A DNA stretch of 64,000 bases from contig CH464491.1 in NCBI GenBank assembly GCA_000002445.1, positions 2,336,001 to 2,400,000 on the forward strand, written 5' to 3'. The translations under genes were made by a program, and so were the position numbers. The DNA comes from Trypanosoma brucei. Lineage: Eukaryota. This document shows positions 1 to 47,573 of this stretch, in pieces. How positions within the stretch are numbered: position 1 is the stretch's first letter; the number at the start of each line of letters is the position of its first letter. The notes beneath the pieces were generated by a model. It searched no databases, was not told the origin of the DNA, and saw nothing but the letters and a program-made list of their open reading frames with translations.

Positions 1-77
1 NNNNNNNNNNNNNNNNNNNNNNNNNNNNNNNNNNNNNNNNNNNNNNNNNNNNNNNNNNNNNNNNNNNNNNNNNNNNN
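1..77. other. Assembly gap (run of N) at the left edge of the window
   Basis: 77 consecutive N characters. They sit directly against a truncated copy of the tandem repeat unit, which suggests a collapsed or unresolved repeat array. Confidence 0.95.
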
Positions 78-78
78 C

Positions 79-762: not shown

Positions 763-1567
763 TTTAGTGAAGTGAGGACATCAGTCAATGGAAACGCTCA
801 CATTGCCCAATGGCATTCATATACAAATCACCTATACACAAGTACCCATAAACAAAACACATTATACACATGTATTGTTATACAGCTATCATATGTTTTC
901 ATTTTTTGAAGTTATACTTTATATGGTTTATTACTTACATTGTTTTTTCTTAAGCATGCTTGTGCTCATGTACAACCAGTGGAGCAACTGGCTAATAACT
1001 CCTTCATCTTTGTGCGGACACCTTGGTGTATCCTATACTTTCTTTGAGGCCTTCTAATCCAGGTACTTTTTACACACTGTGACGCTAATAAGTGTAGTTC
1101 TTTTGATTAATGTCTACTGCGTGCAGTGATGCGAAAAAGTGTGTACTTTATTTGTATGTTTATCTTCGGGTTTGATTTGTTTGGTTGCTGATGACAGTGG
1201 AAGGCCTCTGCAATTATGAAAACTCATAAGGAGGTCCACTACAATTATACTGTTGTTCCCAGATATACGGGTGTGCGCCTAAAGGGACACGTGACGTTCA
1301 AATTGGATATCCCTCCCATTGTTGACCGTATCTCACATTATTGGATATGTTGTAATCACTGACGGCTTGCTGTGAACTGCCACAGCTGTACACATGCACA
1401 CACATGTGATTCGGTTTTTCTTCTCCCAATATCCTTCCTTTCATATAATATAGGCAACCACACAATATTGGCACAACACCTGCTATCAAACTACCCTAAC
1501 CCAAGTGTCTGTTTGTTTCTTTACGTCACTGGGAGGGTTTTAACAAGAACTAACATTGAGTCTGACC

Positions 1568-3280: not shown

Positions 3281-4085
3281 TGAAATGAGGACATCAGTCA
3301 ATAGAAATTCCCACATTGCCCAATGGCATTCATATACAAATCACCTATACACAAGTACCCATAAACAAAACACATTATACACATGTATTGTTATACACCT
3401 ATCATATGTTTTCATTTTTTGAAGTTATACTTTATATGGTTTATTACTTACATTGTTTTTTTCTTAAGCATGCTTGTGCTCATGTACAACCAGTGGAGCA
3501 ACTGGCTAATAACTCCTTCATCTTTGTGCGGACACCTTGGTGTATCCTATACTTTCTTTGAGGCCTTCTAATCCAGGTACTTTTTACACACTGTGACGCT
3601 AATAAGTGTAGTTCTTTCTTTTGATTAATGTCTACTGCGTGCAGTGATGTGAAAAAGTCTGTACTTTATTTGTATGTTTATCTTCGGGTTTGATTTGTTT
3701 GGTTGCTGATGACAGTGGAAGGTCTCTGCAATTATGAAAACTCATAAGGAGGTCCACTATAATTATACTGTTGTTCCCAGATATACGGGTGTGCGCCTAA
3801 AGGGACAGGTGACGTTCAAATTGGATATCCCTCCCATTGTTGACCGTATCTCACATTATTGGATATGTTGTAATCACTGACGGCTTGCTGTGAACTGCCA
3901 CAGCTGTACACATGCACACACATGTGATTCGGTTTTTCTTCTCCCAATATCCTTCCTTTCATATAATATAGGCAACCACACAATATTGGCACAACACCTG
4001 CTATCAAACTACCCTAACCCAAGTGTCTGTTTGTTTCTTTACGTCACTGGGAGGGTTTTAACAAGAACTAACATTGAGTCTGACT

Positions 4086-5801
4086 ATGTGTGGGGGAGAA
4101 GAGAATGGTGGATTGGATCAGGCACATGTGTCCTACAGTGGCAGTGCGAGTGAGCAAAACATTGCGGAAATGATTGTAGACCCATCAGGTTCCCGTCAGC
4201 CCACAGCATTCCAACTCACACTCGATTGCAATAAGGCAGGAATGGGAAATGTGGATAAGGAACGTGTGGAAGCTATTATACGTGATGCCAGGGAAGGCAC
4301 ACCTTTTTTATTAAATGAACAACGTTTGGCTGAGGGTCGAGAGAAGCAACTGCAAGAGCTGAAGCGGAAATCATCTCTCTTCACTCGGTTGTTGGGTGGT
4401 GAACGAAACGCTGCGCAGCGGAAACAGTGGGAGCTGAAGGTTTCCAAAATAGAACAGGAGCTTGAGGCTACGCGTCGACTGGGAACTTATATCCATTTAG
4501 ACATGGACATGTTTTATGCTGCTGTTGAAATCAAGAAGCATCCGGAGTACGCCACCATTCCGCTTGCCATAGGCACCATGACTATGATAATAACAACAAA
4601 TTATGTTGCGCGTGGACGTGGTATTCGTCAAGGTATGCCAGGTTTCCTTGCTCTAAAAATCTGCCCAAATCTACTATTACTCCCTCCCGATGATGATTCC
4701 TACTATTTGGAATCCAATATCGTACGTCGTATTGTTGCTGAATACGACCCTAATTATATAGTTGTTGGTTTGGATGACTTTACTCTCGAAGTAAGTGCCT
4801 ACATAGAGCGTTTTGAGGGAACCAAAACAGCCGAAGATGTGGCTTCTGAACTGCGTGTGCGTGTATTTGGTGAAACAAAGTTGACAGCAAGTGCTGGTAT
4901 TGGACCCACTGCAGCACTTGCCAAGATTGCCAGTAATATTAATAAGCCGAATGGACAACATGATCTTAATCTTCACACGCGAGGGGATGTGATGACATAC
5001 GTCAGGGATTTGGGTCTACGTTCTGTGCCTGGTGTTGGGAAGGTTACGGAAGCTCTGTTGAAGGGACTGGGTATCACCACTCTCTCAGATATTTACAATA
5101 GGCGTGTTGAACTTTGTTACATTTTGCACAATAATTTATTTCGCTTTTTGCTTGGAGCTTCCATTGGCATTATGCAATGGCCCGATGCAGCAACGGCAGC
5201 CAATACCGAGAATTGTGAGGGGGCTACTGGAGAGCAACGGAAGGCAATCAGTAGCGAGCGATCCATCACTACTCCACGAACCAAAGAAGGTATGCAGGAA
5301 ATGGTTGATACCGTATTCAATGGTGCCTATGAAGAAATGCGGAAGAGTGAGATAATGTGTAGACGGATATCCCTCACAATTAGATGGGCCTCTTATCGTT
5401 ATCAACAATACACAAAAAGTTTGATACAATATTCAGATGACTCTGCAACCCTTCGCCGCGCAGTAGACGAGCTCATGTTACCGCACGCTGCAAAGTATTC
5501 AGAGATGTGTTTGTTGGGGGTACGTCTCTCGGACCTTATCTCTGCAAAAGACTTTCATATGAAAAGAAAGGGTGGTAACCAACTGTCTATTTCACAATTT
5601 ATTCGCCCCAAGAAGCCGGGTGAGGTAACAGCAACCACCGGTATAAAAAGGGAGAGGACTACTGAACCGAAACAGGTTGTGGAAATAATAATATCATCAG
5701 ATGACGAGGATGAGAATGATAGTGTTGGCTTGGCATCTAGCTCCACTATACTCGTTTCAACTGGCAAAGGTACTGTTGAGAGGGAAGTTACCATAATTTA
5801 G
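4086..5801 (+). CDS. POLK: DNA polymerase kappa, array copy 2
   Basis: Same motifs as copy 1; first ATG at 4086. It differs from copy 1 in discrete blocks (DPSGSRQPTAFQLTL, MTMIITTNYVARGRGIRQGMP, and a little-finger segment SITTPRTKEGMQEMVDTVFNGAYEEMRKSEIMCRRISLTIRWASYRY). Confidence 0.9.
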   Translation: MCGGEENGGLDQAHVSYSGSASEQNIAEMIVDPSGSRQPTAFQLTLDCNKAGMGNVDKERVEAIIRDAREGTPFLLNEQRLAEGREKQLQELKRKSSLFTRLLGGERNAAQRKQWELKVSKIEQELEATRRLGTYIHLDMDMFYAAVEIKKHPEYATIPLAIGTMTMIITTNYVARGRGIRQGMPGFLALKICPNLLLLPPDDDSYYLESNIVRRIVAEYDPNYIVVGLDDFTLEVSAYIERFEGTKTAEDVASELRVRVFGETKLTASAGIGPTAALAKIASNINKPNGQHDLNLHTRGDVMTYVRDLGLRSVPGVGKVTEALLKGLGITTLSDIYNRRVELCYILHNNLFRFLLGASIGIMQWPDAATAANTENCEGATGEQRKAISSERSITTPRTKEGMQEMVDTVFNGAYEEMRKSEIMCRRISLTIRWASYRYQQYTKSLIQYSDDSATLRRAVDELMLPHAAKYSEMCLLGVRLSDLISAKDFHMKRKGGNQLSISQFIRPKKPGEVTATTGIKRERTTEPKQVVEIIISSDDEDENDSVGLASSSTILVSTGKGTVEREVTII

Positions 5802-6606
5802 TGAAATGAGGACATCAGTCAATAGAAATTCCCACATTGCCCAATGGCATTCATATACAAATCACCTATACACAAGTACCCATAAACAAAACACATTATA
5901 CACATGTATTGTTATACACCTATCATATGTTTTCATTTTTTGAAGTTATACTTTATATGGTTTATTACTTACATTGTTTTTTTCTTAAGCATGCTTGTGC
6001 TCATGTACAACCAGTGGAGCAACTGGCTAATAACTCCTTCATCTTTGTGCGGACACCTTGGTGTATCCTATACTTTCTTTGAGGCCTTCTAATCCAGGTA
6101 CTTTTTACACACTGTGACGCTAATAAGTGTAGTTCTTTCTTTTGATTAATGTCTACTGCGTGCAGTGATGCGAAAAAGTCTGTACTTTATTTGTATGTTT
6201 ATCTTCGGGTTTGATTTGTTTGGTTGCTGATGACAGTGGAAGGTCTCTGCAATTATGAAAACTCATAAGGAGGTCCACTATAATTATACTGTTGTTCCCA
6301 GATATACGGGTGTGCGCCTAAAGGGACACGTGACGTTCAAATTGGATATCCCTCCCATTGTTGACCGTATCTCACATTATTGGATATGTTGTAATCACTG
6401 ACGGCTTGCTGTGAACTGCCACAGCTGTACACATGCACACACATGTGATTCGGTTTTTCTTCTCCCAATATCCTTCCTTTCATATAATATAGGCAACCAC
6501 ACAATATTGGCACAACACCTGCTATCAAACTACCCTAACCCAAGTGTCTGTTTGTTTCTTTACGTCACTGGGAGGGTTTTAACAAGAACTAACATTGAGT
6601 CTGACT

Positions 6607-8322
6607 ATGTGTGGGGGAGAAGAGAATGGTGGATTGGATCAGGCACATGTGTCCTACAGTGGCAGTGCGAGTGAGCAAAACATTGCGGAAATGATTGTAG
6701 ACCCATCAGGTTCCCGTCAGCCCACAGCATTCCAACTCACACTCGATTGCAATAAGGCAGGAATGGGAAATGTGGATAAGGAACGTGTGGAAGCTATTAT
6801 ACGTAATGTATCTGAGGGTTCTTCCTTTTTGATGAATGAACAACGTTTGGCTGAGGGTCGAGAGAAGCAACTGCAAGAGCTCAAACGGAAATCATCTCTC
6901 TTCACTCAGTTGTTGGGTGGTGAACGAAACGCTGCGCAGCGGAAACAGTGGGAGCTGAAGGTTTCCAAAATAGAACAGGAGCTTGAGGCTACGCGTCGAC
7001 TGGGAACTTATATCCATTTAGACATGGACATGTTTTATGCTGCTGTTGAAATCAAGAAGCATCCGGAGTACGCCGCCATTCCGCTTGCCATAGGCACCAT
7101 GACGAGGCTACAAACAGCAAATTACATTGCGCGTGGACGTGGTGTTCGATGTAGCATGCCAGGTTTCCTTGCTCTAAAAATCTGCCCGAATTTGCTCATT
7201 CTGCCTCCTGATTTCGATGCTTACAACGAGGAATCCAATACTGTGCGCCGTATTGTTGCTGAATACGACCCTAATTATATCAGCTTTGGTTTGGATGAAC
7301 TGACCCTTGAGGTAAGTGCCTACATAGAGCGTTTTGAGGGAACCAAAACAGCCGAAGATGTGGCTTCTGAACTGCGTGTGCGTGTATTTGGTGATACAAA
7401 GTTGACAGCAAGTGCTGGTATTGGACCCACTGCAGCACTTGCCAAGATTGCCAGTAATATTAATAAGCCGAATGGACAACATGATCTTAATCTTCATACC
7501 CGAGAGGATGTGATGACATACGTCAGGGATTTGGGTCTACGTTCTGTGCCTGGTGTTGGGAAGGTTACGGAAGCTCTGTTGAAGGGACTGGGTATCACCA
7601 CTCTCTCAGATATTTACAATAGGCGTGTTGAACTTTGTTACATTTTGCACAATAATTTATTTCGCTTTTTGCTTGGAGCTTCCATTGGCATTGTGCAATG
7701 GCCCGATGCAGCAACGGCAGCCAATACCGAGAATTGTGAGGGGGCTACTGGAGGGCAACGGAAGGCAATCAGTAGCGAGCGATCCATCACTACTCCACGA
7801 ACCAAAGAAGGTATGCAGGAAATGGTTGATACCGTATTCAATGGTGCCTATGAAGAAATGCGGAAGAGTGAGCTGATGTGTAGACGCATTTCGTTAAGAA
7901 TAAGGTGGGCCTCCTATCGTTATCAACAATACACAAAAAGTTTGATACAATATTCAGATGACTCTGCAACCCTTCGCCGCGCAGTGGATGGTTTACTGTT
8001 ACCGCATGCTGCAAAGTATTCAGAGATTTCACTGTTGGGGGTACGTTTTCTTGACCTTATCTTTGCAAAAGACTTTCATATGAAAAGAAAGGGTGGTAAC
8101 CAACTGTCTATTTCACAATTTATTCGCCCCAAGAAGCCGGGTGAGGTAACAGCAACCACCGGTATAAAAAGGGAGAGGACTACTGAACCGAAACAGGTTG
8201 TGGAAATAATAATATCATCAGACGACGAGGATGAGAATGATAGTGTTGGCTTGGCATCTAGCTCCACTATACTCGTTTCAACTGACAAAGGTACTGTTGA
8301 GAGGGAAGTTACCATAATTTAG
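6607..8322 (+). CDS. POLK: DNA polymerase kappa, array copy 3
   Basis: Same motifs; first ATG at 6607. It carries its own variant blocks (RNVSEGSSFLMNE; LILPPDFDAYNEESNTVRR ... NYISFGLDELTLEV). The catalytic D/E residues are retained. Confidence 0.9.
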   Translation: MCGGEENGGLDQAHVSYSGSASEQNIAEMIVDPSGSRQPTAFQLTLDCNKAGMGNVDKERVEAIIRNVSEGSSFLMNEQRLAEGREKQLQELKRKSSLFTQLLGGERNAAQRKQWELKVSKIEQELEATRRLGTYIHLDMDMFYAAVEIKKHPEYAAIPLAIGTMTRLQTANYIARGRGVRCSMPGFLALKICPNLLILPPDFDAYNEESNTVRRIVAEYDPNYISFGLDELTLEVSAYIERFEGTKTAEDVASELRVRVFGDTKLTASAGIGPTAALAKIASNINKPNGQHDLNLHTREDVMTYVRDLGLRSVPGVGKVTEALLKGLGITTLSDIYNRRVELCYILHNNLFRFLLGASIGIVQWPDAATAANTENCEGATGGQRKAISSERSITTPRTKEGMQEMVDTVFNGAYEEMRKSELMCRRISLRIRWASYRYQQYTKSLIQYSDDSATLRRAVDGLLLPHAAKYSEISLLGVRFLDLIFAKDFHMKRKGGNQLSISQFIRPKKPGEVTATTGIKRERTTEPKQVVEIIISSDDEDENDSVGLASSSTILVSTDKGTVEREVTII

Positions 8323-8744
8323 TGAAATGAGGACATCAGTCAATAGAAATTCCCACATTGCCCAATGGCATTCATATACAAATCACCTATACACAAGTAT
8401 TGTTATACAGCTATCATATGTTTTCATTTTTTGAAGTTATACTTTATATGGTTTATTACTTACATTGTTTTTTTCTTAAGCATGCTTGTGCTCATGTACA
8501 ACCAGTGGAGCAACTGGCTAATAACTCCTTCATCTTTGTGCGGACACCTTGGTGTATCCTATACTTTCTTTGAGGCCTTCTAATCCAGGTACTTTTTACA
8601 CACTGTGACGCTAATAAGTGTAGTTCTTTCTTTTGATTAATGTCTACTGCGTGCAGTGATGCGAAAAAGTCTGTACTTTATTTGTATGTTTATCTTCGGG
8701 TTTGATTTGTTTGGTTGCTGATGGCAGTGGAAGGCCTCTGCAAT

Positions 8745-8890
8745 TATGTTTGTGTTTTTGTTTCTCTGTGTTGCTGTTTTTCTATATTTTTGGAGTTTGT
8801 TTTTTTTCTTCCTGTTTTTTTGCACTTCTTTTCTTTGCTTTCCTCTTGCAACATATTTTTTTATGTAATTGTATTTTTTTTGTGTGTGTA
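8745..8890 (+). promoter_or_regulatory. Unusually long (~145 nt) polypyrimidine/T-rich tract; putative trans-splicing and polyadenylation signal region upstream of the divergent polymerase paralog
   Basis: This stretch is almost entirely T/C/G with T-runs (tgtttgtgtttttgtttctctgtgttgctgtttttctatatttttggagtttgttttttttcttcctgttttttt...). Kinetoplastid pre-mRNA processing is directed by poly-Y tracts upstream of the AG splice-acceptor. Confidence 0.55.
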
Positions 8891-8971
8891 ATGGTGGCGG
8901 ATGTTGTTTTTGTTTTAGTAGTTGAAGTTTTTGTTTGTTGTTGGATTGAGAGCGACAACGGTAGTTTGCTG

Positions 8972-10636
8972 ATGGTTTCGTTTATTTACAGCTGCGTCTC
9001 TAGTCGTCTGATGTTTGCTAGTGTGAAGAGGGCTGTTGGGCAATATTCATGTTTTCATGTGATTTGTTCCCCGCGCTTCCACAGTAACTATGTTGTGGGG
9101 GTCAACAAGGCGCCTAGTTGGATCGCGTCCCCGACAGAAAGGCGACGAAAGTTTGGTGAAGAGTGCCTTGCCGAAGGTAAAGAGCGGGATGGCGACATGG
9201 ATGTAGAGCTTGTTCCCGTGGACGTGAAAAAGCTTGCTTTGCCCCTGCACCTCACGGACTCGATCCCGCAGGATATCGTCGATAATATCGTTGCGAGAGA
9301 TAGAACACTTGTTTTCGCGCCAAACATGAAGATACTAGACCTGCACAGGCGGTTGTCCCGGATGAAGTATCGGATAAGCGTCCAGCCGCTTGGGAAGGTG
9401 CTGCACTTCCGATTCTTTCGGCTGTGTAAATTGTCCAGCGGTATGCCCGGAGATGTTACAGTGGAAACCTTCCGCAGCATCCAGCAGAAACTCTCCGAGT
9501 ACACAAGATTTTTGGTGATGGATGAACGTTGGCCACTGGAGTTGTCATTAGAAATTACCCCCATTATTGAGCATCAACGGAAGCAAATGCTTGAATGCCA
9601 AGGGGAATGCCGCGTTTCAACGGCGGAGGATGTAATGGAGTTACTTAGTAGTGTTTTTTCCGCTGAGCTCCGCGTGGGGGCGTGGTGCGGTTTGTCTTGC
9701 ACACCAGTCTTGGCGAAGATGGCGTGCGACGAGTGTCACAGGAAACACAAACTATGCCGACAGGACTATTCTCGCGGTGGGGTAGTAGGTACCGTGCGTT
9801 ACGATATTAGGTCGCACAAGGAGGCAAAGGAGTTTGTGCAGAACCTTTCGTTGGGCGATATTCCTGTTGTTGGGAAGCCACAGGCGAGGCTCCTGGAAGA
9901 TGTTTATGGCATTACCAAATGCGGCGGGATTGCGGATCAGGAGGTAAGACTGGGTTTCAGCCTGTCGCAGTCGACGATGGAGTTCTTCCTCTCTGTAGCG
10001 TATGGCACCGTTCGACTCCCTAGCGAGGCCACCACCACGCTTTTGCGCAAACCGCCGAGATGTAAGGCCGCCCATATACGGCGCGAGTCACAGTTTGGCC
10101 GTGTGGTATCAGACGAACAGTTTATCAACACCGTAATGTCCGTCTTCGACAACGTGTACACAGACCTTGTGGAACATGATTTCGTGACGGGACGGGTCAT
10201 GATCGAGACACGCCGCACACTCCCGCGCACTCATTGGGTGGTTGAAGAGAGCGAAGACATTGCGCCCCGAACGAACGACCGCGATTTGCTGCGGGAGGTA
10301 ACGATCCGCCTCGCAAGACGTTTTGCCCCACGGCGAACCGAAGAGCTGCGAGACATTTACAGCGTTGGTGTTCATTTCGGAGACGTGCGCTCGTGGTCAG
10401 AGAATGAGAGGTTGCAGAAGAAAGCTGTTGCAGTGAGCGAAGGGGGCAGCCCCACGACAGGCGGAAGGAAGGATGGCGTTATCGGTGCGGCGAACGGTGT
10501 CCCGGCGCCTACAGTGCCCAAGGGTAGCTCTTCCGCTGGGGCACGACAGCAGAAAAGAAAGAGAACGGGCACCGGTCCAAAGCCGTTGAGGAAAGGCAAG
10601 ATGGGGGCGGCATCGGGAATTCGCATCGTCACATAA
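8972..10636 (+). CDS. Divergent Y-family polymerase (pol kappa-like) paralog with a degenerate motif set and a basic Gly/Lys/Arg-rich C-terminal tail; start codon uncertain (candidates 8891, 8972, 9011)
   Basis: Colinear but weak similarity to the array copies: DMDVELVPVD versus DMDMFYAAVE; LVMDERWPLELSLEI versus VGLDDFTLEV; SCTPVLAKMACDECHRKHKLCRQ versus GIGPTAALAKIASNINKPNGQ; GDIPVVGKPQARLLEDVYGITKCGGI versus VPGVGKVTEALLKGLGITTLGDI. The track ORF 8702 starts at TTG inside the poly-Y tract, so the true start is a downstream ATG. The C-terminus GGRKDGVIGAANG...QQKRKRTGTGPKPLRKGK looks like a nuclear localisation signal. Confidence 0.6.
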   Translation: MVSFIYSCVSSRLMFASVKRAVGQYSCFHVICSPRFHSNYVVGVNKAPSWIASPTERRRKFGEECLAEGKERDGDMDVELVPVDVKKLALPLHLTDSIPQDIVDNIVARDRTLVFAPNMKILDLHRRLSRMKYRISVQPLGKVLHFRFFRLCKLSSGMPGDVTVETFRSIQQKLSEYTRFLVMDERWPLELSLEITPIIEHQRKQMLECQGECRVSTAEDVMELLSSVFSAELRVGAWCGLSCTPVLAKMACDECHRKHKLCRQDYSRGGVVGTVRYDIRSHKEAKEFVQNLSLGDIPVVGKPQARLLEDVYGITKCGGIADQEVRLGFSLSQSTMEFFLSVAYGTVRLPSEATTTLLRKPPRCKAAHIRRESQFGRVVSDEQFINTVMSVFDNVYTDLVEHDFVTGRVMIETRRTLPRTHWVVEESEDIAPRTNDRDLLREVTIRLARRFAPRRTEELRDIYSVGVHFGDVRSWSENERLQKKAVAVSEGGSPTTGGRKDGVIGAANGVPAPTVPKGSSSAGARQQKRKRTGTGPKPLRKGKMGAASGIRIVT

Positions 10637-35711: not shown

Positions 35712-36943
35712 ATAGGGATCTCCTCCAATCTATCGAACGGCTGCGTCCTTTTTCCAGAAGAGTTGTATCTGTTGATTTGCCCGTGGTGGAGATGGCAAGG
35801 GTGAGTTATATATGTAACTAGCATGTGGGGTTGTACTATCCAAAGCCCATGTAGGTAGTCAATAAATGTGTACAGTTGGTTGTCGAGGTGGGGGTGTTGC
35901 GTGCGTTGGTGAGGAGGGTGTGCTTTTTGTATGCATACAACGTATGCTTACCTCCCATCCACCACAACCACAACCTCCAACCAGTCAGAATGCTCGTTTT
36001 GTTCTTCGCTTTTCACCGTATTCGGTACTGTTGCTTCTACCCAAATTTGAACACTTTGCTTTAAGTATTATCTTTTTTCTTTGTTTGCTCCGCCACGACA
36101 AGTCAACGACTGTGCCGCGACGGCGCCTTAGTGGCGGCCCCTCCGTCGTTGCCCTTTTGCTCTGTAGAAGATATGTCGCTTTCTGCTTATTTGCTGAAAA
36201 GCAAATACGGGCGCCATTCAGCTGATCCGGCGTCACGTACTGTGTGGACGGTCACTGCTAGGTTTCCAGTCTGTTTATTTCCCTCCTTTTTTTGAGCTTA
36301 GTTGGGCACTAGTTTTCTTCCCTATGCCTGAAAATAAAAATCGTGGCGTGCCTTCGCTGGGCCACCGCGGTTTGTGGCGAGACGGGGAGAAGCCCGCGCC
36401 AAACGCAACGGGTTTCAGGAGTACATATGTCGGGGCCCACTTTAATTGTAGGTTTACGCGCCCCGCTACTAAAACATGGTGGTTAGGAAATTTTAGTAAG
36501 ATGATATACCGCTGCGGGCACCAACTTACCCGCCATTGCGGTGTCAAGGTCCAGCGCCGCCCATATCGGTGGACAACAAAACGCCAGCACCTTCGACATG
36601 TCGAGCTGGTTTCGGAGGTGCATTTACAATCACCCGACGGTGCCCCAATGAGGTGCGATGGTCACTTGAGGGGAAGGAAGAAGCGTTAGTTCGCAATTCG
36701 GCATAGCGGGGCAAACCGTATGTTTAGCCTAGTGTGCAGCGAAAAGAAAGGCGTGCGCGAATTTACAATAAACTGCTTCTCGCCGGATTTGCCTTCCGGT
36801 GCACTGCCAAGGTGCTGATCCAGAGGCGACAGGATGCAAGAGCAAAAAAAGGGGAAGGATCATACAAACATACGTAGATGCACACACGTACGCTTATGCA
36901 TTTGTTGTTTGTGAATGTGGCACCGAAGAGGGAACGAATCCCA

Positions 36944-37065
36944 GGGGGGGGGGAGGTTTTGATCGAGTTCTGTGGGGGTGAACTGCGTTAGTAAAGAGTG
37001 TGGGAAAAAACTCCCCCGCGGCAGATGCTTCCACCGCCTCCGGGACAGCCGGGACCCCCCCCCCC
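36944..37065. repeat. Homopolymer pair: G10 (36944-36953) and C11 (37055-37065) about 100 bp apart
   Basis: ccaggggggggggagg ... gggaccccccccccctt. Plus C13 at 15442-15454 and A12 at 32524-32535 elsewhere in intergenic DNA. Confidence 0.85.
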
Positions 37066-37780
37066 TTCCTTTGACAGCGAGCTAGTGATCCGCAAAAGCG
37101 AACAACAACACCCCGCTAGGATATTCGGGATCTGGCGGGGATTGAACCCCCAGGCCGCTTCGTCTCACGGGACCGTGCCGCCGGTAGTGTCTTTAGGGGC
37201 GCCAACGGGCGGAAGCGAATGTGGATGATTCGGCTGCGGTTCTACCCTTCGCATTCGTGCCATCATGCGCAATAGTATCTACGCCACCGACGCTGCAAGA
37301 ACGCGGAGGTGTTACGAGCGGTTTGTGTATGTTGCAGAGGGGGAGAAGGAGAAAGGAAAGTATCCTTTTTTGTTTCCACTGCGGTCGCACGTGTAAGGGA
37401 TTTCGTGAGGCCAAACAGCATTCACTTCAACCTCTCACACTATCACCTTCTTTCCCTCTTTAGCTTCCATATTTTGGAGAGCTGTACAACACCTCTGCAG
37501 CGATTTTTGACACATCCTGCAAAAATCTATTTCTACCACAAACTTCGTCCGGATTGAAAAAACACCAAGAGCACTCGCCTCGAGGGCGATCCCTCATGTG
37601 GCTATAGTTTTCTCCTGGGACTTTCACTTCCAATCTTAACTCATGTTGTCGTCTGCTTTGGTGTAGCTTTCGCACCTCCAAGCTTCGCGTGCACACACAC
37701 CATGGTAGATTCACCGAGCGCAGACTCCGCGGCCATAGCAACTCAACGGTACACGGAACTTCTCTGAACCGCTTATAGCC

Positions 37781-37820
37781 TATATATATACATATATATA
37801 TATATACATTTTTTTTGCAT
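37781..37820. repeat. TA-rich simple repeat ((TATA)/(TATATACA) runs followed by T8)
   Basis: tatatatatacatatatatatatatacatttttttt, inside the long gene-free region. Confidence 0.9.
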
Positions 37821-39384
37821 TAAAGTTCCCAATAGTTCCCCAAACGACCTTCCAACGCCCGCCCAGCCACTCACTCGATCACGCGTGTGTAAATTTTGAC
37901 CCTCGATTCGGTTTCCTCTCATGCCCCCTTTTGGTTGTCGCAATTCACGTATTTTCGTCACGCCGCAATCCATATATACAAACTGTCCCTTGTGGCCCGT
38001 GATCCCCATTCCGCAAATACCGAGAGTGGCTCATGGCTTTCCAACGTTACACGCTCCCCTTTTCCGCAAAAGCATGAGGACCCGTAGACGACACCACCTC
38101 GTAAAGCGACTGCAGCCTGCCGCCGGGCTCGGGTACCCTCGTCCCGGTTGCGCGGGGTTTGGTTGTTTTCGCTTTCAAACCTTCCTGGAGCAAGGGCAAA
38201 TGGGGAGCTTGGTTCAGCCTCTTTTTCGCAGCGTCGACTGTCAGCCGCGGCCCTTTCAACGCCGATTTAGCTATTGCGTGTTTTCCACCGCCTCGACCGT
38301 ATGGCCTGTTCACGCTGGCTCTCCACACCATGGCAGCTCTGTTCCCACTTCTAACTCGATCTTAACTAATACAAAACCGCTACTTTCCTCAACGACAATC
38401 GCTAATGGAGTGCTGGGGTCTCGTGCGCCAAAGCTTATCGGGGAAGGAGGCTAACCCCCACCCGTGATCACGACGCGCAGCCACCTACGCCGCCAAAAGT
38501 CGCAACGCTGTCAAATGCCTTCGCTTGGCCCTCGAAAATGAGGAATTGTGGATTGAAGTTACTGCTGCCGCAGATGCTTGGGGCGGCCGAAGCCGCCATC
38601 GGCGTTGCGCGCGGTCGCCGTTTGCACGATAGCATATGCATACGATGTACATGAACTGCAACCCGCTTCGGATGTTTTACACCCGCGGCGGCGTCGCGAA
38701 ATGGCAACGCCTAAGTATGGGGTCCCCCTGGACACTTGTGTGATCCGCCGCACCCCTTACCGAAACTGGTAAGAGGAAGGGAAGCTAGCTATTGCGAATG
38801 GGCCGCAGCGGCAGCGAGCAGCCGACCTCAGAACCAAAGGAAGTGCGCTTTAGACGGATAATCGGTGCTGTTTCTTACCGAAAGGGTGAACGGATGCGCG
38901 GTGGAGGAAGGGGGAAACTGCCAAAGAGGGCTTGTGCCACCGCAAAAACGAGTGCGTACGCGACGGGAATGGTAGACAGAGATTACGAAAGCGGGGGCAT
39001 GCCCGGCGATTGTCAAATGAGAGCGAAACACCGAGTAGCGGTGAACGGGGGCCCGTCAGCACTGACTTGTTTGCAGCCGTGACCGGTTGCCAAAATTGAG
39101 CGTTACGCAGAACATTTTTTTTTTGGAATTTTCTTCGTGCCTTCGTGGGAGTTTCCCCCAACTGGCGCGGCCATCAGCCATCACCGTAGAGCCCTGAGAT
39201 GCTATCGGTCTGGCGACTGTGGCAGAGTCTCCCTTTTTTATTCAGCCTAACACACCCTCTATAATTTTTGTTGTAGCTCCGCAGTTGAACGGAATACAGC
39301 AGATGGGGCGAGAAGCCCCCACCCCAGACTCTCCAAAAGATGTCAATTAGCAATCCTTTTGTTTTGATTTTTGTTATTCGTTTA

Positions 39385-41565
39385 TTATTCTCTCATCCTT
39401 TTTCTGTTTCTGTTGCTTGTTGACTGCATACCCCCTCTGTCTCTGAGGGTGTCTGGACTATTCCTGCGTCCGGTGCTTTTCCTGCTAGCTCCACACCCGG
39501 CAATAAGGGGGGAAGTTGCAGAAGGGAGAGTGGGTTGTATGACTGTTACCTTAGGTGAGGACTTCACCTGCGGCCGGCTCCGTTCAACCGCAATGAGAAA
39601 TTGCGCCAGCCTTTTGGAGAAGCATATATCCTGCACACACTCACCTTCTACCGCAAACCTGACACGTAACTCCTCCAAACCGGGACAGCTCATCAAGTGC
39701 AACGACGTTTCTTCGCAGTCGCCGCGTTGGCTGGTAACAGCGCGCTCTACCTTCATACCGTGCATCTTCTTTTGATGTAGGGTGAGGCCAGTTTTGCTAG
39801 CACACTGCCTTCCGCATGTCGGGCACACCAACATGGATGTGTTTGTATGCGGGGAATCAGTGGCACACAATTTTGTGCTTTTGCTGCATTTAAGCTCGAC
39901 TCCCTCACCTTTGTGGAAAGCCTTACAGTGTCGGATGAGGGAGTCCCTGCAACTGAGCACTTTTTGGCACACACCACACTGCACCTCACCTTTCCCCGGG
40001 ACGTCAACGTTTCCCTCACGGGCACGCTTACGAGGGAATTGCACCACCACCACGGTACCGTCCTCCGTCACTATGCTTTTATGTTTGAATTTCTTGTGTA
40101 GTGACAGGGAAGAACGTGTACCGAAGCTCGCCTCGCGCAGGTCACATTGAAACGGCAGCTTCCGTGTATCCTTAGGGGCTGGCACTGCTGGGGCTCTACC
40201 ATCTCCTTGCAATGAGTCTTCGTTCTCTCGCCCCCTTTTCACGCGGCAACTACCGCTGCCTATGCCATGTATTGTTCTAAGGTGGTGTAATAGTCGGCCT
40301 GGCACTGCGAATTTGGAGGCACAGATGGTACAATGAAGAACCTGTGGTCTCATTGGGACTCGTGTGCTCGATGGTAAAGGAACGATCGCCACCACTGGAG
40401 GGGGCTCCGGGGGGATGTCCACTGCAGGTGTTGCATCGCCGTATTTGATCCTCCGGAGGGCATCAGCTCGCACAAAGCCGTGTTTGTTTACCATGTGCGT
40501 TACAGCACTCGAGCGGCATTGGTATGTGGCATCACATTCCGTACATTTGGTCGGTTCGAAGGTTCTCTGAAGAGTGCGTGTCGCAACAGGTGTGGTTGTT
40601 TGTGTTTGTATTGTTGGCCCTATTGCTGCATGTTGCGGGTTGCACCATCGGAACTGTGGAGGCACACTCGGGTTGATTTTTCGCAACATCCATCCATAGT
40701 ATCTTGAAGACCCAACACGAAAGCGTGCCAGTGCCGTTTCTTCTTTCCTCGTCAGTTCTTCTTTATGTTTTGTTGGAAAGTGGTTGCCCGTGATACCAAA
40801 CCTATGAGTGTTCTCATGGACTTCTTCCGANNNNNNNNNNNNNNNNNNNNNNNNNNNNNNNNNNNNNNNNNNNNNNNNNNNNNNNNNNNNNNNNNNNNNN
40901 NNNNNNNNNNNNNNNNNNNNNNNNNNNNNNAACATGATTGGGCCAAGGACAGTTCCTTGTGGCACTCCTCGCTCAAATGTTCTGCTTCTGGAGAGCTTCT
41001 CCTTGAATCTCACTCTGCCAGTTCGGTTACTCAGAAATGATACGCACCACTTCACAATGTGGGGTGATACCTTCATTCTGTGCATTTCCCTCGCAATTTT
41101 GTCGTGGTCTACTGTATCAAATGCCTTCTCGTAGTCAACGAATACAGCACCCGTACGATATTGGTGCGTGGGACGGCAGAGGGCAGCGCGGACGTGCAGG
41201 AGTTGTTCGAGCGTTGAGCATCCGGGGCGAAAGCCTGATTGCTGCGGCGTCAGCTGGGACTCAACAGTGTCTCTAAGTCTCGCGGCAATTATGCGCTCCA
41301 TGACTTTGCAGAGACAGCTCGTGAGCGTCACAGGCCTGTAAGAATCGAGGTCCTCCGCCTTTTTTCCGGCCTTCAGGATGGGGATGATAACACCAGTCTT
41401 CCATGCAGGCGGCACGACTCCCGTTCGTAGGCTCTCATTGAATAGCCTCAGCACAACATTCAGCGCTGTTCTGCCGAGATGTTGCAGTGCCTCGTTGTAT
41501 AAGCAATCAGGTCCGGCTGCGGATCCACTCGGTAGCAGTTTGATCGATCTCCGTAGTTCAGCCAT
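39385..41565 (-). pseudogene. Retroelement ORF, C-terminal part: reverse transcriptase, RNase H-like region and C2H2 zinc fingers; interrupted by a 100-N gap
   Basis: RT motifs: AAGPDCLYNE, GVIIPILKAGKK, and a YxDD-region lost in the gap. C-terminal C2H2 fingers: CTECDATYQCRSSAVTHMVNKHG, CTICASKFAVPGRLLHHLRTIHG, CGVCQKVLSCRDSLIRHCKAFH, CPTCGRQCASKTGLTLHQKKMHG. The ORF translation contains the X run that comes from the N gap. Confidence 0.8.
40831..40930. other. Assembly gap (100 N) inside the retroelement RT region
   Basis: Exactly 100 N, a conventional placeholder size. The element as shown is ~3.9 kb, whereas full-length ingi/L1Tc is ~5 kb, so roughly 1 kb of RT sequence is probably missing here. 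Confidence 0.9.
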
Positions 41566-41643
41566 CGTGATGGGACTGAACTCACTCGCTATCGTCTTTA
41601 TGGGTGCCGGTGGGTGTGAGTCGGGGTGCCTTCTTGCGCGGGA

Positions 41644-42828
41644 CTAGTACAGTTTAATGAACCTCTCAGCTTGACGGTAGTCCGTGATGGCCGCGTTATC
41701 AACAAGTACAGCCTGTGTGGTTAGTGGTCGTGGCGCATATACCTTCTTGACAATGTGCCAACTGCAGCGGTCTGACACCGCAAGTCTGGAGCATAGCGTG
41801 CTCCATCTCTTCTTTGTGGTATGGTCCAGGATCTGCTTACGCGTGGCTACCAACTTTTCCCTTCGGTGGGAGGGTCCGCATCCAGCGATCTCTTCATCGA
41901 GTTTCGCGAGCTCAGGTGTCCAATGTGGTGGCGTTGCTCTGCAGCCACGGGGGACGGAGACCTTCGTCGCAATGCGGATGGCGGAGCTCAATTTCTGTTC
42001 CATGGTGTTGACGTTCTTCTCTCTAACAATTTTCCTGCAGAGCTCGTCAACCTTGAGACGGAAATTCCTCCAGTCAGCTTTTAGCCATGCGTACATGGGC
42101 TTTCGAAGCCGCGGGCAACTCAGTGCATCTGTGCCGTCTCCAACGATAACGTCGAAAAATATGTGATGGTGATCGCTATCGGGAGAATACAGCGATGTCC
42201 ACGTGTACACTGTGCAATTCCTTGACAGTGTCACATCAGGGGTGGACTCCCCGTGGTGGCGCGCGTACCTGGTGCACTCACCAGTGTTGCAGACCAGAAA
42301 CTGGTTGTCAATGCACCACTGTGTGAGGGTTTCACCCTTGGTATTTGGTGGGCTCGCGCGATCCCATGCCAACGCGTGTGCGTTAGCGTCTGCACCGATG
42401 AGCTGGGCACCGTCAGTCATCAGAAGCGTATCTAGGTCAGTTGCCGTGAAGGTGTGTTTTGGTGGGATGTATGCCGACGTGACAGTCAGCGCTGTTCCAC
42501 GTGCAAGGTGAATTGTTGCATGCACTTGTTCAATGCGACCAACAACGGTCATACCGGTCTCGACTGGCAGGTCCTCCCTCACTAGTATTGATACACCACC
42601 TCCTTTGCAGTTACGAGCTATTCCGTGATGTTGGTAGCCAGCAACGCTAAAGCAAGCCGCCTCTCCAGGCGTCATCCTTGTCTCGCTCAACAGACAAAAG
42701 GCGATCCGCTCATCAACAAGGGTTTTGTGGAGTGCTAATCTCTTTCCTTGAGATAGCCCGGCGCAGTTCCACTGCATCCCGCGCAACGACGGGCCGGGAT
42801 TCTCTTCCACATCACCGGACAGCAGCAT
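41644..42828 (-). pseudogene. Retroelement ORF, N-terminal part: 2A self-cleaving peptide (DVEENPGP) followed by an apurinic/apyrimidinic-type endonuclease domain; ends at an in-frame TAG
   Basis: MLLSGDVEENPGP matches the D(V/I)ExNPGP 2A consensus. The following sequence MQWNCAGLSQGKR...LLSETRM is typical of the N-terminus of LINE endonucleases. The stop TAG at 41646-41644 is in the same reading frame as the downstream RT ORF (42828-41565 = 1263 = 3 x 421). Confidence 0.8.
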
Positions 42829-44321
42829 CTTAGTGCGGGTGATACTGCTGATGGCACGCTAGCCACGTGCCCAGGGACCGACAAATGAAAAACGGTGTCA
42901 CAGCAAGACGCTGCTGATCCCTGTGCTGTATGATGCCGTAGCCGGAGCACAGCAGTGTTCCCCATGAAAGGAACGCTGCTGGCTCTTGGCTTCCCCCGAT
43001 GATACGGGGTACTGGACCCTGACACCACGTTGATGTGGCCGGCATCGCCAGGGTTCAAAACATTTTTTCCCAACCTAATGAAGGCTAGTCTTTTCGCTAG
43101 GCTCCTGCGTTGATTTGCCTTACTTTCACGGACTCTCTGTTCCGGCACCCATTGTTGTGGCAGCATGTCGCCCCTATTAGGGATTGTATTTGATGTCAAC
43201 GGGCGAACAACAGATGTAATGCCCTCGTTGGAGTCTTCAAGTGCCGTCCACTCCACCTTTCCCCTATTTACGGGGCTTAATTGCGCGTTCCTTTCAGTAA
43301 TTTGGGCCAACCAGCCCCCTTTTCTGAGGAAGTAAAAGGTTGTGGAGTTTTGAAGTACATTATCCTTTTCATATCGCGCCCCACTGCTACATTGGAGGTG
43401 ATCCAACTGTGGTAGCTGTTACGGTTCCGCACCACATTCTGAACGATCACCTCACAACGCCAGAAATAGGTAACGTTTGTGTGAAACAGCCTGTCTCCCA
43501 GTGTTGTGTGTCACATTAGGTCTTCACTGCCGGTGACCATTAAACTCTTCTCCAGTTGCCAAATTTAATATCAGCTTCTCTCACTCTCTTCCTTTGGGGC
43601 GCGCGAGTTCCGGCAGCAGGGCGACAATTCGAATCCGCTCAAAATAGCCGTGGACCTTTATTTCTCCCAGTAACTCCGACCTTCCCGTGCTCACGTTAGA
43701 GTTGTCGGGGAAAGGGAAATATGTCACAGCATGCTGTTCACTACTTTCAGGCACCATTGCAACAGTGACGCTTCCCAAATCTGTGTTTGTTCTCAGACTC
43801 GTAGCTACACCACTCCAAAACGAACGTGTGTTGACGCCCTGGTGCTTTTCTCTCTAAAATGGGCAAGCCCCGTGTGTTTGCAACCATAGGAGGTGAATGG
43901 CGCGGTTCCCATAATCTTTGCGATCACCTCCTGCGTGACGGAAAGGTCCAGCGCGCCCTCGCAGAGCATTGCCGGGAGGGTCACACGTTTCCGCCTGAGA
44001 GGTGTCCCTCCGTTTCGTTAAGCTCCGATGATGGGAGCGGGAACTGGGTTCTGCTTGGTATCCCCGCTGAGGGACAAGATAACCCCGTCAACAGAGCATA
44101 AAAGTGTGCACTTTCGCCGGCATTAGGCAGTGCTTAAAGTGGGCACCTTCCCGTGGTGCTCGACTGTTGCCGCACCTAGTTGCTCTGGTTGGCTGATGTC
44201 AGGTGCCACCGCTGTGCCAATGCTCGAAGGGGGGCCTTGTTCCTTACCTTGGAGGCCGACAGCCCCTGATACCACGATGGGACGACCGGTGTTCCCACGG
44301 TTGGTGTTGATGTTCTGCGTA

Positions 44322-44565
44322 CCCTAGCAATGCCGGCCACATCAACGTGGTGTCAGAGTCCGGTACCCCGTATCATCGGGGGAAGCCAAGAGCCAGCAGC
44401 GTTCCTTTCATGGGGAACACTGCTGTGCTCCGGCTACGGCATCAAAAAGCACAGGGATCAGCAGCGTCTTGCTGTGACACCGTTTTTCATTTGTCGGTCC
44501 CTGGGCACGTGGCAGCGTGCCATCAGCAGTATCACCCGCACTAAGATGCTGCTGTCCGGTGATGA
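44322..44565 (+). mobile_element. Truncated RIME/ingi 5'-end fragment (~245 bp) in the opposite orientation to the ingi copy (head-to-head)
   Basis: It begins with the same retroposon signature in + orientation (ccctagcaatgccggccacatcaacgtggtgtcagagtccggtaccccgtatcatcgggggaagccaagagccagcagcg). It is colinear with the ingi 5' UTR through the ATG (MLLSGD). Homology stops after ~245 bp. The next ~250 bp do not match this ingi's 3' end, so it is not a canonical complete RIME. Confidence 0.7.
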
Positions 44566-46526
44566 TGTTTCGAATGATGTATTTTTAGGGTGTCGAGGGG
44601 GAATGCTGCCAAATCATCCGTCACTGAAGGGCGAAACTGGATTTGACCGAGGGTGAGTCCACCGCCTGCTCGTCATCTATCATTGCTCAGGCAAGAAGTG
44701 AGTGCACGGTGACGAAAAAATGATAGACACAAGTTGTTTGTAGATACGTATACGTAGCATTCTACAAAGAATCCAACAATTCCACCAACGAATGTTGCCA
44801 TCACTGAATACTGTCCGTTTAAGCCCATTTTCAACGCGGTTACAATAAAGAGTCCCTCGGAGAGGCTTTTGTTGTACTAGAGAAAGGGGGGAGAACGAAA
44901 TTTAATTCGTGTAGTTGCAGCAGTGGCGGAGGTTGGTAAGGGTTTCTCGTCTCGATTTTGAACCGCTGCTGCCGTAAGTAGGGATTTCCTGACTAGCGGC
45001 AATCAGGATAGTCATTCCGGTCTTCTGGTGGAAAAACTTTATTAAGGATTATGGCGCTTTTTGCTCTTCAGGGTGCCGTCTGCTCTAAGAGCCACAAGGA
45101 AGAGGGAGAAAACGCGTGGCGGAGGAAGAGGCACGGGGTTTACGAGGCTTTGGGGAGACTTCGACCCCTAGTGAGCGGCAACGCGGTACACCCTTGGCCC
45201 TCCCCGTCCTACGTCCATCACCCACAGTGACCCGGCTCCTAGGGCGTGTCACCGCTGCCTGATAGCTCGAGTAGTGGCTGCTAAACGCTTGCGGTGCCGG
45301 GAAGTGCGGTCTTTGATGTGACGCCTGCCGGAGGCAGGGCTTTTTACACAGCTTGCCTAACGAAGGTCGTGATTTGGTGGTCGCTGTAAATCGTCGATTG
45401 ACGTGGTCGTTTTGTGGCAATTCAGTCTGCCGGGGGCGGTTGGTGCTACCGCCGCAGATGTAGGAGGTGCCCTACCTGGTGCTCTCGGTAGTGCCTTCGC
45501 TTCTCCTCAGTCGTTTTTTTTTGGACTGTGGTCCGACGGAGGAGAGATATGGGGCTCGTATGTGCCAAACCAAGGGTGGGGATTGGATCCAAACCGACTG
45601 CCAGCGCTTCACTCACGGGGAGTTGGTTGGGCTCTCCGGGGTGGTCCCGCACCACCCACATGGGAAATGAGACGAGGGAGATATGACAGCAACTTGCTCA
45701 CCTGGCGTTCACGGCGCGGTGCCCGCTGCGATCTACGTTCTTTTATTTTTTGTTGGGGAGGAGTTCAGTGTCTCGTTCCTTTCCTCAGCTGCTATGGCAA
45801 AAATTGTGGTTCGTGTGTGGAGTACCAAGGGTGCCGCAAACAACAAGCAACTGCGCTCCCGTAGCAACTGTCCGTGATTTTTGTCTTCCATCAGGGGATG
45901 TTGTGGAGTTCTCTAATACCGCGTTGTTCTGGCACAGCTTACCCGCTTGTCTTTGGCTATGTCCGGCACCACCGAGTTTCTGCTGCTTCCACTCATATCT
46001 AATACTAGTTTTGTATATTTGTTATAGAGAGGGGGGGGGCGCCGTGATGTTAAGGCATGGCATCTGCCCTCGGTTTTACGGGCCTTCATCCAAAATTTGC
46101 GCCGTTATTTCATCTGCTTTCTGAGCTAACCCGACCTAAGTGTCATTTCTATGTCTTATGAAGGTGGGTAAGCCGCGTATACACTAAACTTCTGTGGTCT
46201 GTGGAGCGCCACGTTCGTGGCGTTATATGATAAAGGCGTGGTTAAAGAATCTAAAGTTGTCAGTGCATCCCGTTGTTGGTCTGTTCTGTGCAAGTCGTGG
46301 TGAATACGATTAATTTCTGTCTGTGAAGGGTTCATTATATTTGTGCCGCTTTGATGGTTACTTTATCCTTTATGGTATTTGCATTCTGATGATAAACCCT
46401 ATTTTGTTGTTGGGAGGAATCATTAGCTTTGTGTAACGCTAAATCTGTTAGCATATAAACGATTTTTCGTTGTCTGCGGCAGATAAGGCCTCACACAAAG
46501 AAAGTGTGCAAGGTTAGTGAAATTCA

Positions 46527-47573
46527 ATGGCCTTTTCTGCACTAGCCGCTGTTTTTTTCACCGGTTTCTGTGTTCTGTTCGCCACTATATTAGCTTTTTC
46601 TCCGCGACAGACCCATGATAGGAAGAAGGTGCTGGCGCGGTTGAGAGCTAAATTCCCCTACTCTGTCAGTAAGATCGCTCACAGAGGGGGGAGTATATTG
46701 GGACCGGAAAATACTTTGTATGCTTTCCACAGGGCAGTGAAGGAGGGCGCGGCGGACATGCTGGAGTTAGATGTTCGCGAAACCATGGACTATCGTATTG
46801 TGGTTTGCCATGACGAGTGGCTGGAAAGACTTTGTGGGAGTGCGTACAAGCACGTGACTGTAAAAGACATCACGGTTGGCGACGATCCCAACACCAATCT
46901 CCCCCAACTGCAAAGGAATATACCTCTCCATTTTGTGTCTAGTGAGAAAACCATGTACTGTGCCACAGATTCCGTACCAGTGGACGGCACCACTCGCTTG
47001 TGCTTGCTGGAAGAAGTATTCGAAGCATTTCCTACTATCCCAATTCACATTGATATTAAATATGCGAGTTCAGATTTCACTGATCGGATATTCGATTTGA
47101 TTAAGAAATATGGACGCGAACCGGTTACATTCGTTGGCAGTAGCAACTGGAGGAATGAAATATATATTACAAGGCATATGAAAAGACTTTCTTCACAGAA
47201 GGACAAGTGTAAATTTCACACCTTCGCCGGTCCCATAGACTACGTGCTTGTGCACGTTGCTCACTATATTGGCGTGCTGCCGCTGATCCCCTTGAACTTT
47301 GATATTTTTTCTGTTCCCTTATTTACGAAACGAAAGAAACAAGAAATTCCATTTTTCTTGCGGCCGATAGCACAGCTTTTAAATTCCCCGTCCCTGTGGA
47401 TGCACTTGCAGCAGCGGGGTATTCTTGTTGTCGGTTGGGTGCTAAACGACGTCGATGAGTTCGAGGAGGCTTCTAGATGGCCAATAAATGGTGTAATGAC
47501 CGATGATCCAATATCATTCAACGGTTTCCTAATATCACACGACGTTTCTAATACGATGAATTTGCTGAACTGA
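46527..47573 (+). CDS. Glycerophosphodiester phosphodiesterase (GDPD/GP-PDE family)
   Basis: N-terminal transmembrane/signal segment. The GDPD signature is HRGGSILGPENTLYAFHRAVKEGAADMLELDVRETMDYRIVVCHDEWLERL, with the two catalytic His (HRG, CHD) and metal-binding E/D. Later IHIDIK and VVGWVLND (compare W.VN) are typical of the family's C-terminal TIM-barrel strands. Confidence 0.8.
   Translation: MAFSALAAVFFTGFCVLFATILAFSPRQTHDRKKVLARLRAKFPYSVSKIAHRGGSILGPENTLYAFHRAVKEGAADMLELDVRETMDYRIVVCHDEWLERLCGSAYKHVTVKDITVGDDPNTNLPQLQRNIPLHFVSSEKTMYCATDSVPVDGTTRLCLLEEVFEAFPTIPIHIDIKYASSDFTDRIFDLIKKYGREPVTFVGSSNWRNEIYITRHMKRLSSQKDKCKFHTFAGPIDYVLVHVAHYIGVLPLIPLNFDIFSVPLFTKRKKQEIPFFLRPIAQLLNSPSLWMHLQQRGILVVGWVLNDVDEFEEASRWPINGVMTDDPISFNGFLISHDVSNTMNLLN

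Follow-up and report, generated by a model that had tools for sequence, protein, structure and literature searches.

Inverted ingi/RIME 5' ends on Trypanosoma brucei chromosome 11 enclose a 1.27-kb segment that lies in opposite orientation in the TREU927 reference and in related genome assemblies

When two near-identical retroposon 5' ends lie head to head, the question arises as to how the pair came about and whether the DNA between them still lies as it did when the elements inserted. We addressed this for a minus-strand ingi element and a solo plus-strand fragment of the ingi/RIME type, both found in a 64-kb stretch of Trypanosoma brucei DNA (hereafter the window, to which positions refer unless stated otherwise) that corresponds to NT_165288:2,336,001-2,400,000 of TREU927 chromosome 11. 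The assemblies compared here show that the TREU927 reference carries the spacer between the two elements, together with most of both matching arms, inverted with respect to the arrangement in which the ingi inserted.

The arms form a 244-bp inverted repeat with 237 of 244 aligned columns identical (97.1%). The left arm (42810-43053, minus strand) comprises ingi positions 1-244 with the 5' signature and the ATG-MLLSGD start, and the right arm (44322-44564, plus strand) is the solo ingi/RIME 5' fragment, comprising element positions 1-243/245 without a 3' half or poly(A). Identical runs between the arms measure 4, 2, 27, 4, 82, 1, 66 and 51 nt; a repeat search paired them as 193 nt (97%) and 51 nt (100% complementarity) with a one-base indel between, and blastn gave a single arm alignment of 245 columns (97.14% identity, E = 2e-114), this pair being the sole repeat of the 37-48.5 kb region that blastn found anywhere within the window. 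The fully identical 51-nt stretch occupies 42810-42860 with its partner at 44514-44564, and we infer it to be the zone in which the inversion was exchanged. Between the arms lies a spacer of 1,268 bp (43054-44321). An earlier, sequence-only reading of the window had proposed near-identical inverted repeats at this site, and the arm-to-arm alignment places them far above the limit of about 80% identity that it had set. Its inner ends (43053 and 44322) and its spacer length were exact and its left outer end, given as 42830, was 20 nt off, the arm reaching 42810; the limits used here were set after trimming one chance-matching flanking A at each inner end. A 34-nt stretch of the 5' signature occurs at the two arms only, with 0 occurrences expected from shuffled sequences, and translation agrees with the same reading in finding the ATG-MLLSGD start in both arms, followed by VEENPGP in the ingi and by diverging sequence in the solo fragment.

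That these are inverted 5' ends of ingi/RIME-type retroposons, as had been proposed, is supported by a published TREU927 catalogue listing both elements (PMC4660242, supplement). It gives a 'Complete INGI' on the minus strand at NT_165288:2375115-2379053, with an upstream flank ending ...GGGAAAAAATGTTTTGAA, and a 'RIME A 9-243, 3' truncated' on the plus strand at NT_165288:2380330-2380564, with an upstream flank ending ...GGTGTTGATGTTCTGCGTA. Both entries fit the window with an offset of 2,336,000, and as coordinates and flanks match, the arrangement analysed here is that of the public reference. Many rows of supplementary file 1 of that paper are doubled, with chunk-relative as well as chromosome coordinates (e.g. 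89470 and 2189400), so that copy counts taken from it would be inflated. Of the conventional gene open reading frames (ORFs) of the window 13 were looked up, and 12 proved identical to TREU927 proteins whose accessions, EAN79825 to EAN79846, follow the order of position; several of these sequences are strain-unique. All identified genes lie on the plus strand and thus belong to one transcription unit, to which the ingi is antisense and the solo fragment sense.

In order to compare orientations we used the flanking genes to obtain the orthologous loci from T. b. gambiense DAL972 chromosome 11 (FN554974.1), T. b. equiperdum GCA_003543875.1 (CM010682.1) and contigs of T. equiperdum OVI, the DAL972 and T. 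b. equiperdum stretches compared being free of N. The evidence on inversion comes from assemblies of different strains and not from reads within TREU927, and short-read Logan contigs, which are shorter than needed to span an arm, were uninformative on orientation. With megablast, window positions 42810-44564 aligned in reverse to the DAL972 and T. b. equiperdum loci, the flanks to the left of 43054 and to the right of 44321 being colinear, and the spacer orientation in OVI agrees with these two although the path there runs through a gap. Both orientations, colinear flanks and breakpoints within the arms are thus found across assemblies of different strains. DAL972 and T. b. equiperdum carry the ingi and the solo fragment at these same sites, which makes the two insertions older than the split of these lineages.

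The target-site duplication of the ingi indicates which of the two arrangements is the derived one. As a rule Tbingi and TbRIME produce duplications of 12 bp (PMC3820030), and in the window the 12-mer ATGTTCTGCGTA has exactly two occurrences, on opposite strands, with 0 expected from shuffles. The 3' copy (39104-39115, minus strand) stands directly after the poly(A) and shares its first A with the tail, and the 5' copy (44310-44321, plus strand) is displaced, adjoining the solo arm and not the 5' end of the ingi. In front of the ingi 5' end DAL972 and T. b. equiperdum have the flank ...GTTGATGTTCTGCGTA, and their 3' copy reads ATGTTCTGCATA, a normal direct duplication with one mismatch. The duplication being split in the window and an intact bracket elsewhere, the window arrangement is the derived state. 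This fits the earlier suggestion that such arms can drive inversions, with the spacer reversed against three related genomes and the ingi duplication split to match. The 3' copy itself pairs the strains two and two by a single substitution, reading ATGTTCTGCATA in DAL972 and T. b. equiperdum and ATGTTCTGCGTA in TREU927 and OVI. For the conserved motif of about 11 bp that lies upstream of Tbingi and TbRIME duplications (the endonuclease recognition pattern), a rough profile of 28 catalogued upstream flanks gave a signal too weak to be of use, which the two insertion sites here match in part.

The junctions and the arm variants tell where the exchange would have taken place. DAL972-type junctions read 'ingi body, arm, TACGCAGAACAT' and 'TGTTTTGAA, arm, ATGTTTCGAA', and those of the window read 'ingi body, arm, TTCAAAACAT' and 'ATGTTCTGCGTA, arm, ATGTTTCGAA'. 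In DAL972 and T. b. equiperdum the ingi arm and the solo arm can be told apart by their variants at arm positions 6, 9 and 194. The window has these variants exchanged between its arms along with the spacer, and since they travel with it the exchange point falls after position 194, in the last ~51 identical nt. Five further diagnostic sites (91, 110, 117, 192 and 216) show the same state in both TREU927 arms, making these arms mosaic in the manner that gene conversion with recombination would leave. In total the arms differ at 7 positions in TREU927 and at 12 in T. b. equiperdum.

The minus-strand element (39115-43053) is a degenerate ingi non-long terminal repeat (non-LTR) retrotransposon with a 10-A tail at 39115-39124. 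Its span in the window is reduced to 3,939 bp by an assembly gap of 100 N (40831-40930), which conceals about 1.3-1.4 kb; the orthologue of DAL972 measures 5,256 bp and that of T. b. equiperdum 5,248 bp, the distance between flanking genes is 1,277 bp greater in DAL972 than in the window, and the catalogue gives the window element as positions 1-5256 (PMC4660242). Pfam searches of its ORFs (41644-42828 and 39385-41565) returned Exo_endo_phos_2 (8.8e-13) and RVT_1 (1.9e-28) along with a weak zf-C2H2_4 match (2.7e-5) whose 24.9 bits fall under Pfam's 27-bit cut-off. The ORF starts MLLSGDVEENPGP (42790-42828, minus strand), a 2A-like self-cleaving motif as described for L1Tc and relatives; the solo arm retains MLLSGD and loses the 2A-like motif exactly at its truncation point. 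The reading frame is broken in the window as well as in DAL972 and T. b. equiperdum, and with an interrupted frame the window copy is not autonomous. A length of ~5.2 kb in the orthologues, endonuclease and reverse transcriptase coding, poly(A) and a 12-bp duplication were all found for it. It thus resembles Tbingi (ingi4 subclade) in its 5' signature, MLLSGDVEENPGP, endonuclease, reverse transcriptase, sub-cut-off zinc finger, poly(A), 12-bp duplication and ~5.25-kb orthologues, and differs in that the window copy is degenerate and gap-interrupted and is no longer bracketed by its two duplication copies.

The solo fragment ends at about element position 245 with no A-run at 44565. The RIME 3' half was not found after 44564, local alignment to the last 300 nt of the ingi scoring 19 against a shuffle mean of 17.9, and no similarity to any part of a full-length ingi was seen there (best E = 1.9). 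Such chance-level alignments rule out a degenerate RIME 3' half or an internal ingi piece downstream. The view that this copy is not a canonical RIME therefore holds, the downstream sequence being unlike the ingi 3' end or the rest of the element and without poly(A). Compared with TbRIME, a non-autonomous element of ~0.5 kb made of the ingi 5' and 3' ends, the fragment has the 5' ('RIME A') half, the canonical CCCT start and a short flanking direct repeat. It lacks the joined 3' ('RIME B') half of ~250 bp, the poly(A) and the 12-bp duplication, its flanking repeat being 10 nt with one mismatch and not a clean 12. This repeat is best seen in the un-inverted genomes, where the solo arm is preceded by ...GGGAAAAA-ATGTTTTGAA and followed by ATGTTTCGAA-TGATG, giving a 9/10 direct repeat exactly at both ends. 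In the window ATGTTTTGAA, the upstream flank of the solo arm in the other genomes, lies at 43054-43063 (minus strand) and adjoins the ingi 5' end, and ATGTTTCGAA lies at 44565-44574 (plus strand), the same flank pair being present in DAL972 and T. b. equiperdum. Judged from these flanks the ATGTTTTGAA/ATGTTTCGAA repeat is likely a vestigial target-site duplication around a 3'-truncated copy. Target-primed reverse transcription normally truncates the 5' end, which makes a 3' truncation unusual for that process. There is no overlapping microhomology at the 3' junction of the solo arm, and the truncated copy could come from reverse transcription with an internal start or from a truncated RNA, or from later deletion. 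The catalogue lists further chromosome 11 'RIME A' fragments ending at positions 242-248 (PMC4660242), and 'RIME A'-only fragments may be a recurring class.

No recognisable gene was found in the spacer, as had been stated from the sequence alone. A Pfam search of it gave no protein domain and no recombinase, and a permissive Rfam scan of 38800-46600 found nothing in arms or spacer and no HDV-like ribozyme family, its only hit being a chance mir-1788 match (E = 0.44) outside the feature. No tandem repeats were detected in 36000-47000. Between strains the spacer has diverged by about 1.5% with no sign of constraint. Nor is the spacer anonymous unique DNA. About 1.1 kb of it (the core, 43128-44244) is a two-copy sequence on chromosome 11, the second copy lying at a site that we call locus B (the window locus being locus A) beside the KPAP1 gene and a gene for a protein of 318 amino acids. 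Locus B lies upstream of locus A by ~191 kb in TREU927 and by ~213 kb in DAL972, and its neighbours also include the Rpb8 gene. Compared with the window, the DAL972 locus B copy (corresponding to window 44244 to ~43128) has 97.7% identity, and 24 differences separate it from the locus A copy of DAL972; after the 1.1-kb repeat it continues into unrelated DNA with no arm. This paralogue adjoins minus-strand genes and then ~8 kb of DAL972 sequence without gene calls, which may be a strand-switch region.

A second junction of interest emerged from a 223-amino-acid ORF running from the spacer through the left arm. Protein searches matched it to the TREU927 coding sequence Tb11.01.0560 (EAN79760.1, 126 amino acids, 'hypothetical protein'), whose first 39 residues come from the TGTTTTGAA end of the spacer, whose middle part corresponds to an arm differing in 4 codons from each of the window arms, and whose end, MMFRMMYF-stop, comes from 44562-44588. 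EAN79760.1 thus represents the un-inverted junction (TGTTTTGAA, arm, ATGTTTCGAA) and cannot be encoded contiguously by the window; flipping the window segment in silico yields an ORF of exactly 126 amino acids. Tb11.01.0560 is positioned at NT_165288:2,189,400-2,189,643, 77 genes and 191 kb upstream, where the catalogue has a 'RIME A 1-243' with the same 100-nt upstream flank (PMC4660242). By its composition it is almost certainly not a real gene, being made up of intergenic spacer-type DNA, a RIME 5' fragment and 27 nt from the start of the R flank, our name for the DNA that begins at 44565, to the right of the solo arm. The genes next to it, EAN79758 (KPAP1) and EAN79759 (318 amino acids), are those found ahead of the spacer sequence in OVI contig CZPT02001628.1 (1-6714). 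This contig runs from the left flank of locus B through the 1.1-kb repeat and a 47-N gap into the right flank of locus A (GDPD onward). It is locus B-type for the first ~130 nt of the repeat and then shows 2 differences in ~950 nt from the TREU927 locus A copy. The contig would leave out ~190 kb and probably represents a repeat collapse.

Taking these observations together we favour, at somewhat better than even odds, an explanation of the locus by two insertions and a recombination-mediated inversion. Two independent old insertions would have placed the elements in opposite orientation in one intergenic region of the plus-strand transcription unit of chromosome 11. The spacer would then have been turned round by homologous recombination within the chromosome, the two inverted arms undergoing a reciprocal crossover in their last ~51 identical nt, and accompanying gene conversion would have made the TREU927 arms mosaic. 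Inverted dispersed repeats are generally able to recombine in this way, and the locus resembles such cases in its inverted homologous arms, breakpoints within the arms, colinear flanks, inverted segment and mosaic arms; it differs in being a very small event (1.27 kb, with arms of 244 bp) that is known from assemblies only and may be an assembly flip. Recombination and rearrangements involving ingi/RIME, including some between TREU927 and DAL972, have been reported for T. brucei (PMC2854126). On the assemblies compared we lean towards the inversion being genuine in TREU927 rather than a contig flip. In its favour the arm next to the R flank has two TREU927 forms, those of the window and of EAN79760.1, which a simple chimera from one read set would not give. 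A number of points weigh against it. The 100-N gap lies in the ingi 2 kb from the arm, in a region that was consequently never finished; the arms come from a high-copy family, which makes the arm consensus and contig joins unreliable; and the exchange point is the longest identical stretch, at the outer arm ends, where a contig fits either way. The same reference holds the un-inverted junction at NT_165288:2,189,400, which may represent leftover un-inverted reads. OVI, the closest relative (99.9% identity), appears un-inverted, and the case is built at the level of assemblies rather than reads. Misassembly, which the sequence-only reading had named as one finding that would overturn it, is a serious concern given the gap and the un-inverted copy elsewhere in the reference. 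In such an artefact TREU927 would truly be of the DAL972 type, a contig of spacer and partial arms would have been joined backwards via the arm ends, and the reads of the true junction would have ended up in a chimeric locus B contig. Besides the adjacent 100-N gap, the position of the exchange point within the 51-nt identical outer arm ends and the un-inverted junction at Tb11.01.0560 (2,189,400), this alternative is favoured by the independent OVI assembly, which takes the same path from locus B through the repeat and arm to locus A and switches from locus B- to locus A-type variants ~130 nt in, so that the 1.1-kb repeat does mislead assemblers; the authors of the DAL972 genome also caution that assemblies resolve regions of this kind with difficulty (PMC2854126). 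It requires, however, that both window junctions be chimeric simultaneously, and Sanger (capillary) reads, being longer than the 244-nt arm, ought to have settled the orientation. In EAN79760.1 the arm stands 4 codons off both window arms, so that reads missing from the window locus would not by themselves account for the locus B copy, and the mosaic arm pattern suggests a real exchange between arms in the TREU927 lineage. An artefact accordingly has an appreciable probability, at roughly one chance in three.

Three scenarios would accommodate the two junction kinds in the reference. TREU927 may be heterozygous for the inversion, or mixed, with reads of the un-inverted haplotype merged into locus B and the inversion real; it may be un-inverted with the window a contig flip; or locus B of TREU927 and OVI may truly extend through an arm into a copy of the start of the R flank, in which case both loci are correctly assembled and the inversion is real. 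Active recurrent flipping through the 244-bp arms, with TREU927 heterozygous or mixed, would explain both kinds of junction; it would turn round a 1.27-kb segment whose paralogue adjoins a possible strand-switch region and so alter antisense transcription or small-RNA output in the polycistronic unit, and we regard it as unlikely. Still less likely is a selected switch, recurrently flipping to toggle a functional spacer element (e.g. promoter-like DNA related to the paralogue at the possible strand-switch region) with a regulatory effect. Both orientations do occur among close relatives, the paralogue of the spacer core lies beside minus-strand genes followed by ~8 kb without gene calls in DAL972, and gene conversion keeps the arms alike. 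Set against this, no recombinase, conserved RNA family or protein domain was found in the spacer, its ~1.5% divergence between strains gives no sign of constraint, and the arms are ordinary copies of a dispersed repeat. From what the spacer contains the inversion is probably neutral. Twin priming, or 5' inversion, is described for L1 and could in principle produce such a pair in one event at retrotransposition. Only the head-to-head geometry of two same 5' regions speaks for it. The process inverts internal parts of one element inside a single pair of target-site duplications, whereas here the arms stand 1,268 bp apart with non-retroposon DNA between them, 1.1 kb of which has its own paralogue, and in the other genomes the two elements are flanked by separate direct repeats. 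We therefore reject this origin, whose probability we consider very close to nil, on the two separate flanking repeats and the 1,268-bp non-element spacer.

The suggestion that the two 5' regions would produce convergent transcription does not hold. Both 5' ends border the spacer and the elements point apart, so any Pr77-type promoter activity would be divergent and directed outward. Double-stranded RNA, which had been proposed along with it, would not arise in that way and is possible through fold-back of a read-through transcript. A plus-strand read-through transcript would carry the left arm antisense and the right arm sense, and the stem of ~237 bp into which it could fold might serve as a substrate for Dicer. 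The predicted arm pairing comprises 237 bp with a duplex energy of -528 kcal/mol, and the predicted fold with a surrogate loop reaches -543, controls with shuffled arms giving -214 ± 5. In T. brucei small interfering RNAs (siRNAs) come from long inverted repeats and from ingi, ingi being the main source (PMC3447711), and Tschudi et al. 2012 described seven siRNA-yielding repeats, IR1-IR7, of 422 bp to 10 kb and at least 99% identity (PMC3447711). The present locus shares with IR1-IR7 an inverted repeat in a transcribed region, the potential for fold-back and arms of ingi sequence, and differs from them in its 244-bp arms at 97%. The window locus (2.38 Mb) does not appear in the table of that paper, where the sole chromosome 11 entry is at 4.22 Mb.

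We found no published description of the window locus, and the two large inversions named in PMC2854126 are on chromosome 10. Retroposon-mediated rearrangement is already accepted in T. brucei and the locus is a new instance. For curation the points to note are that chromosome 11 of the TREU927 reference departs from three other Trypanozoon assemblies at 2.379-2.381 Mb and that it has a further, suspicious un-inverted junction at 2.189 Mb. If the inversion is real, the displaced target-site duplication would prove that in T. brucei an inversion came about through a 244-bp retroposon repeat, and the length and identity of the arms would give a lower bound for what suffices in events of this kind.

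Elsewhere in the window, the first 77 bases are also N. Intergenic DNA to the left of the ingi contains a short (TA)n/ATATAC microsatellite palindrome (37781-37809). Tandem Y-family DNA polymerase genes with impB/IMS domains occupy 1556-8322 with a period of ~2.5 kb, and a more divergent copy follows at 8702-10636.

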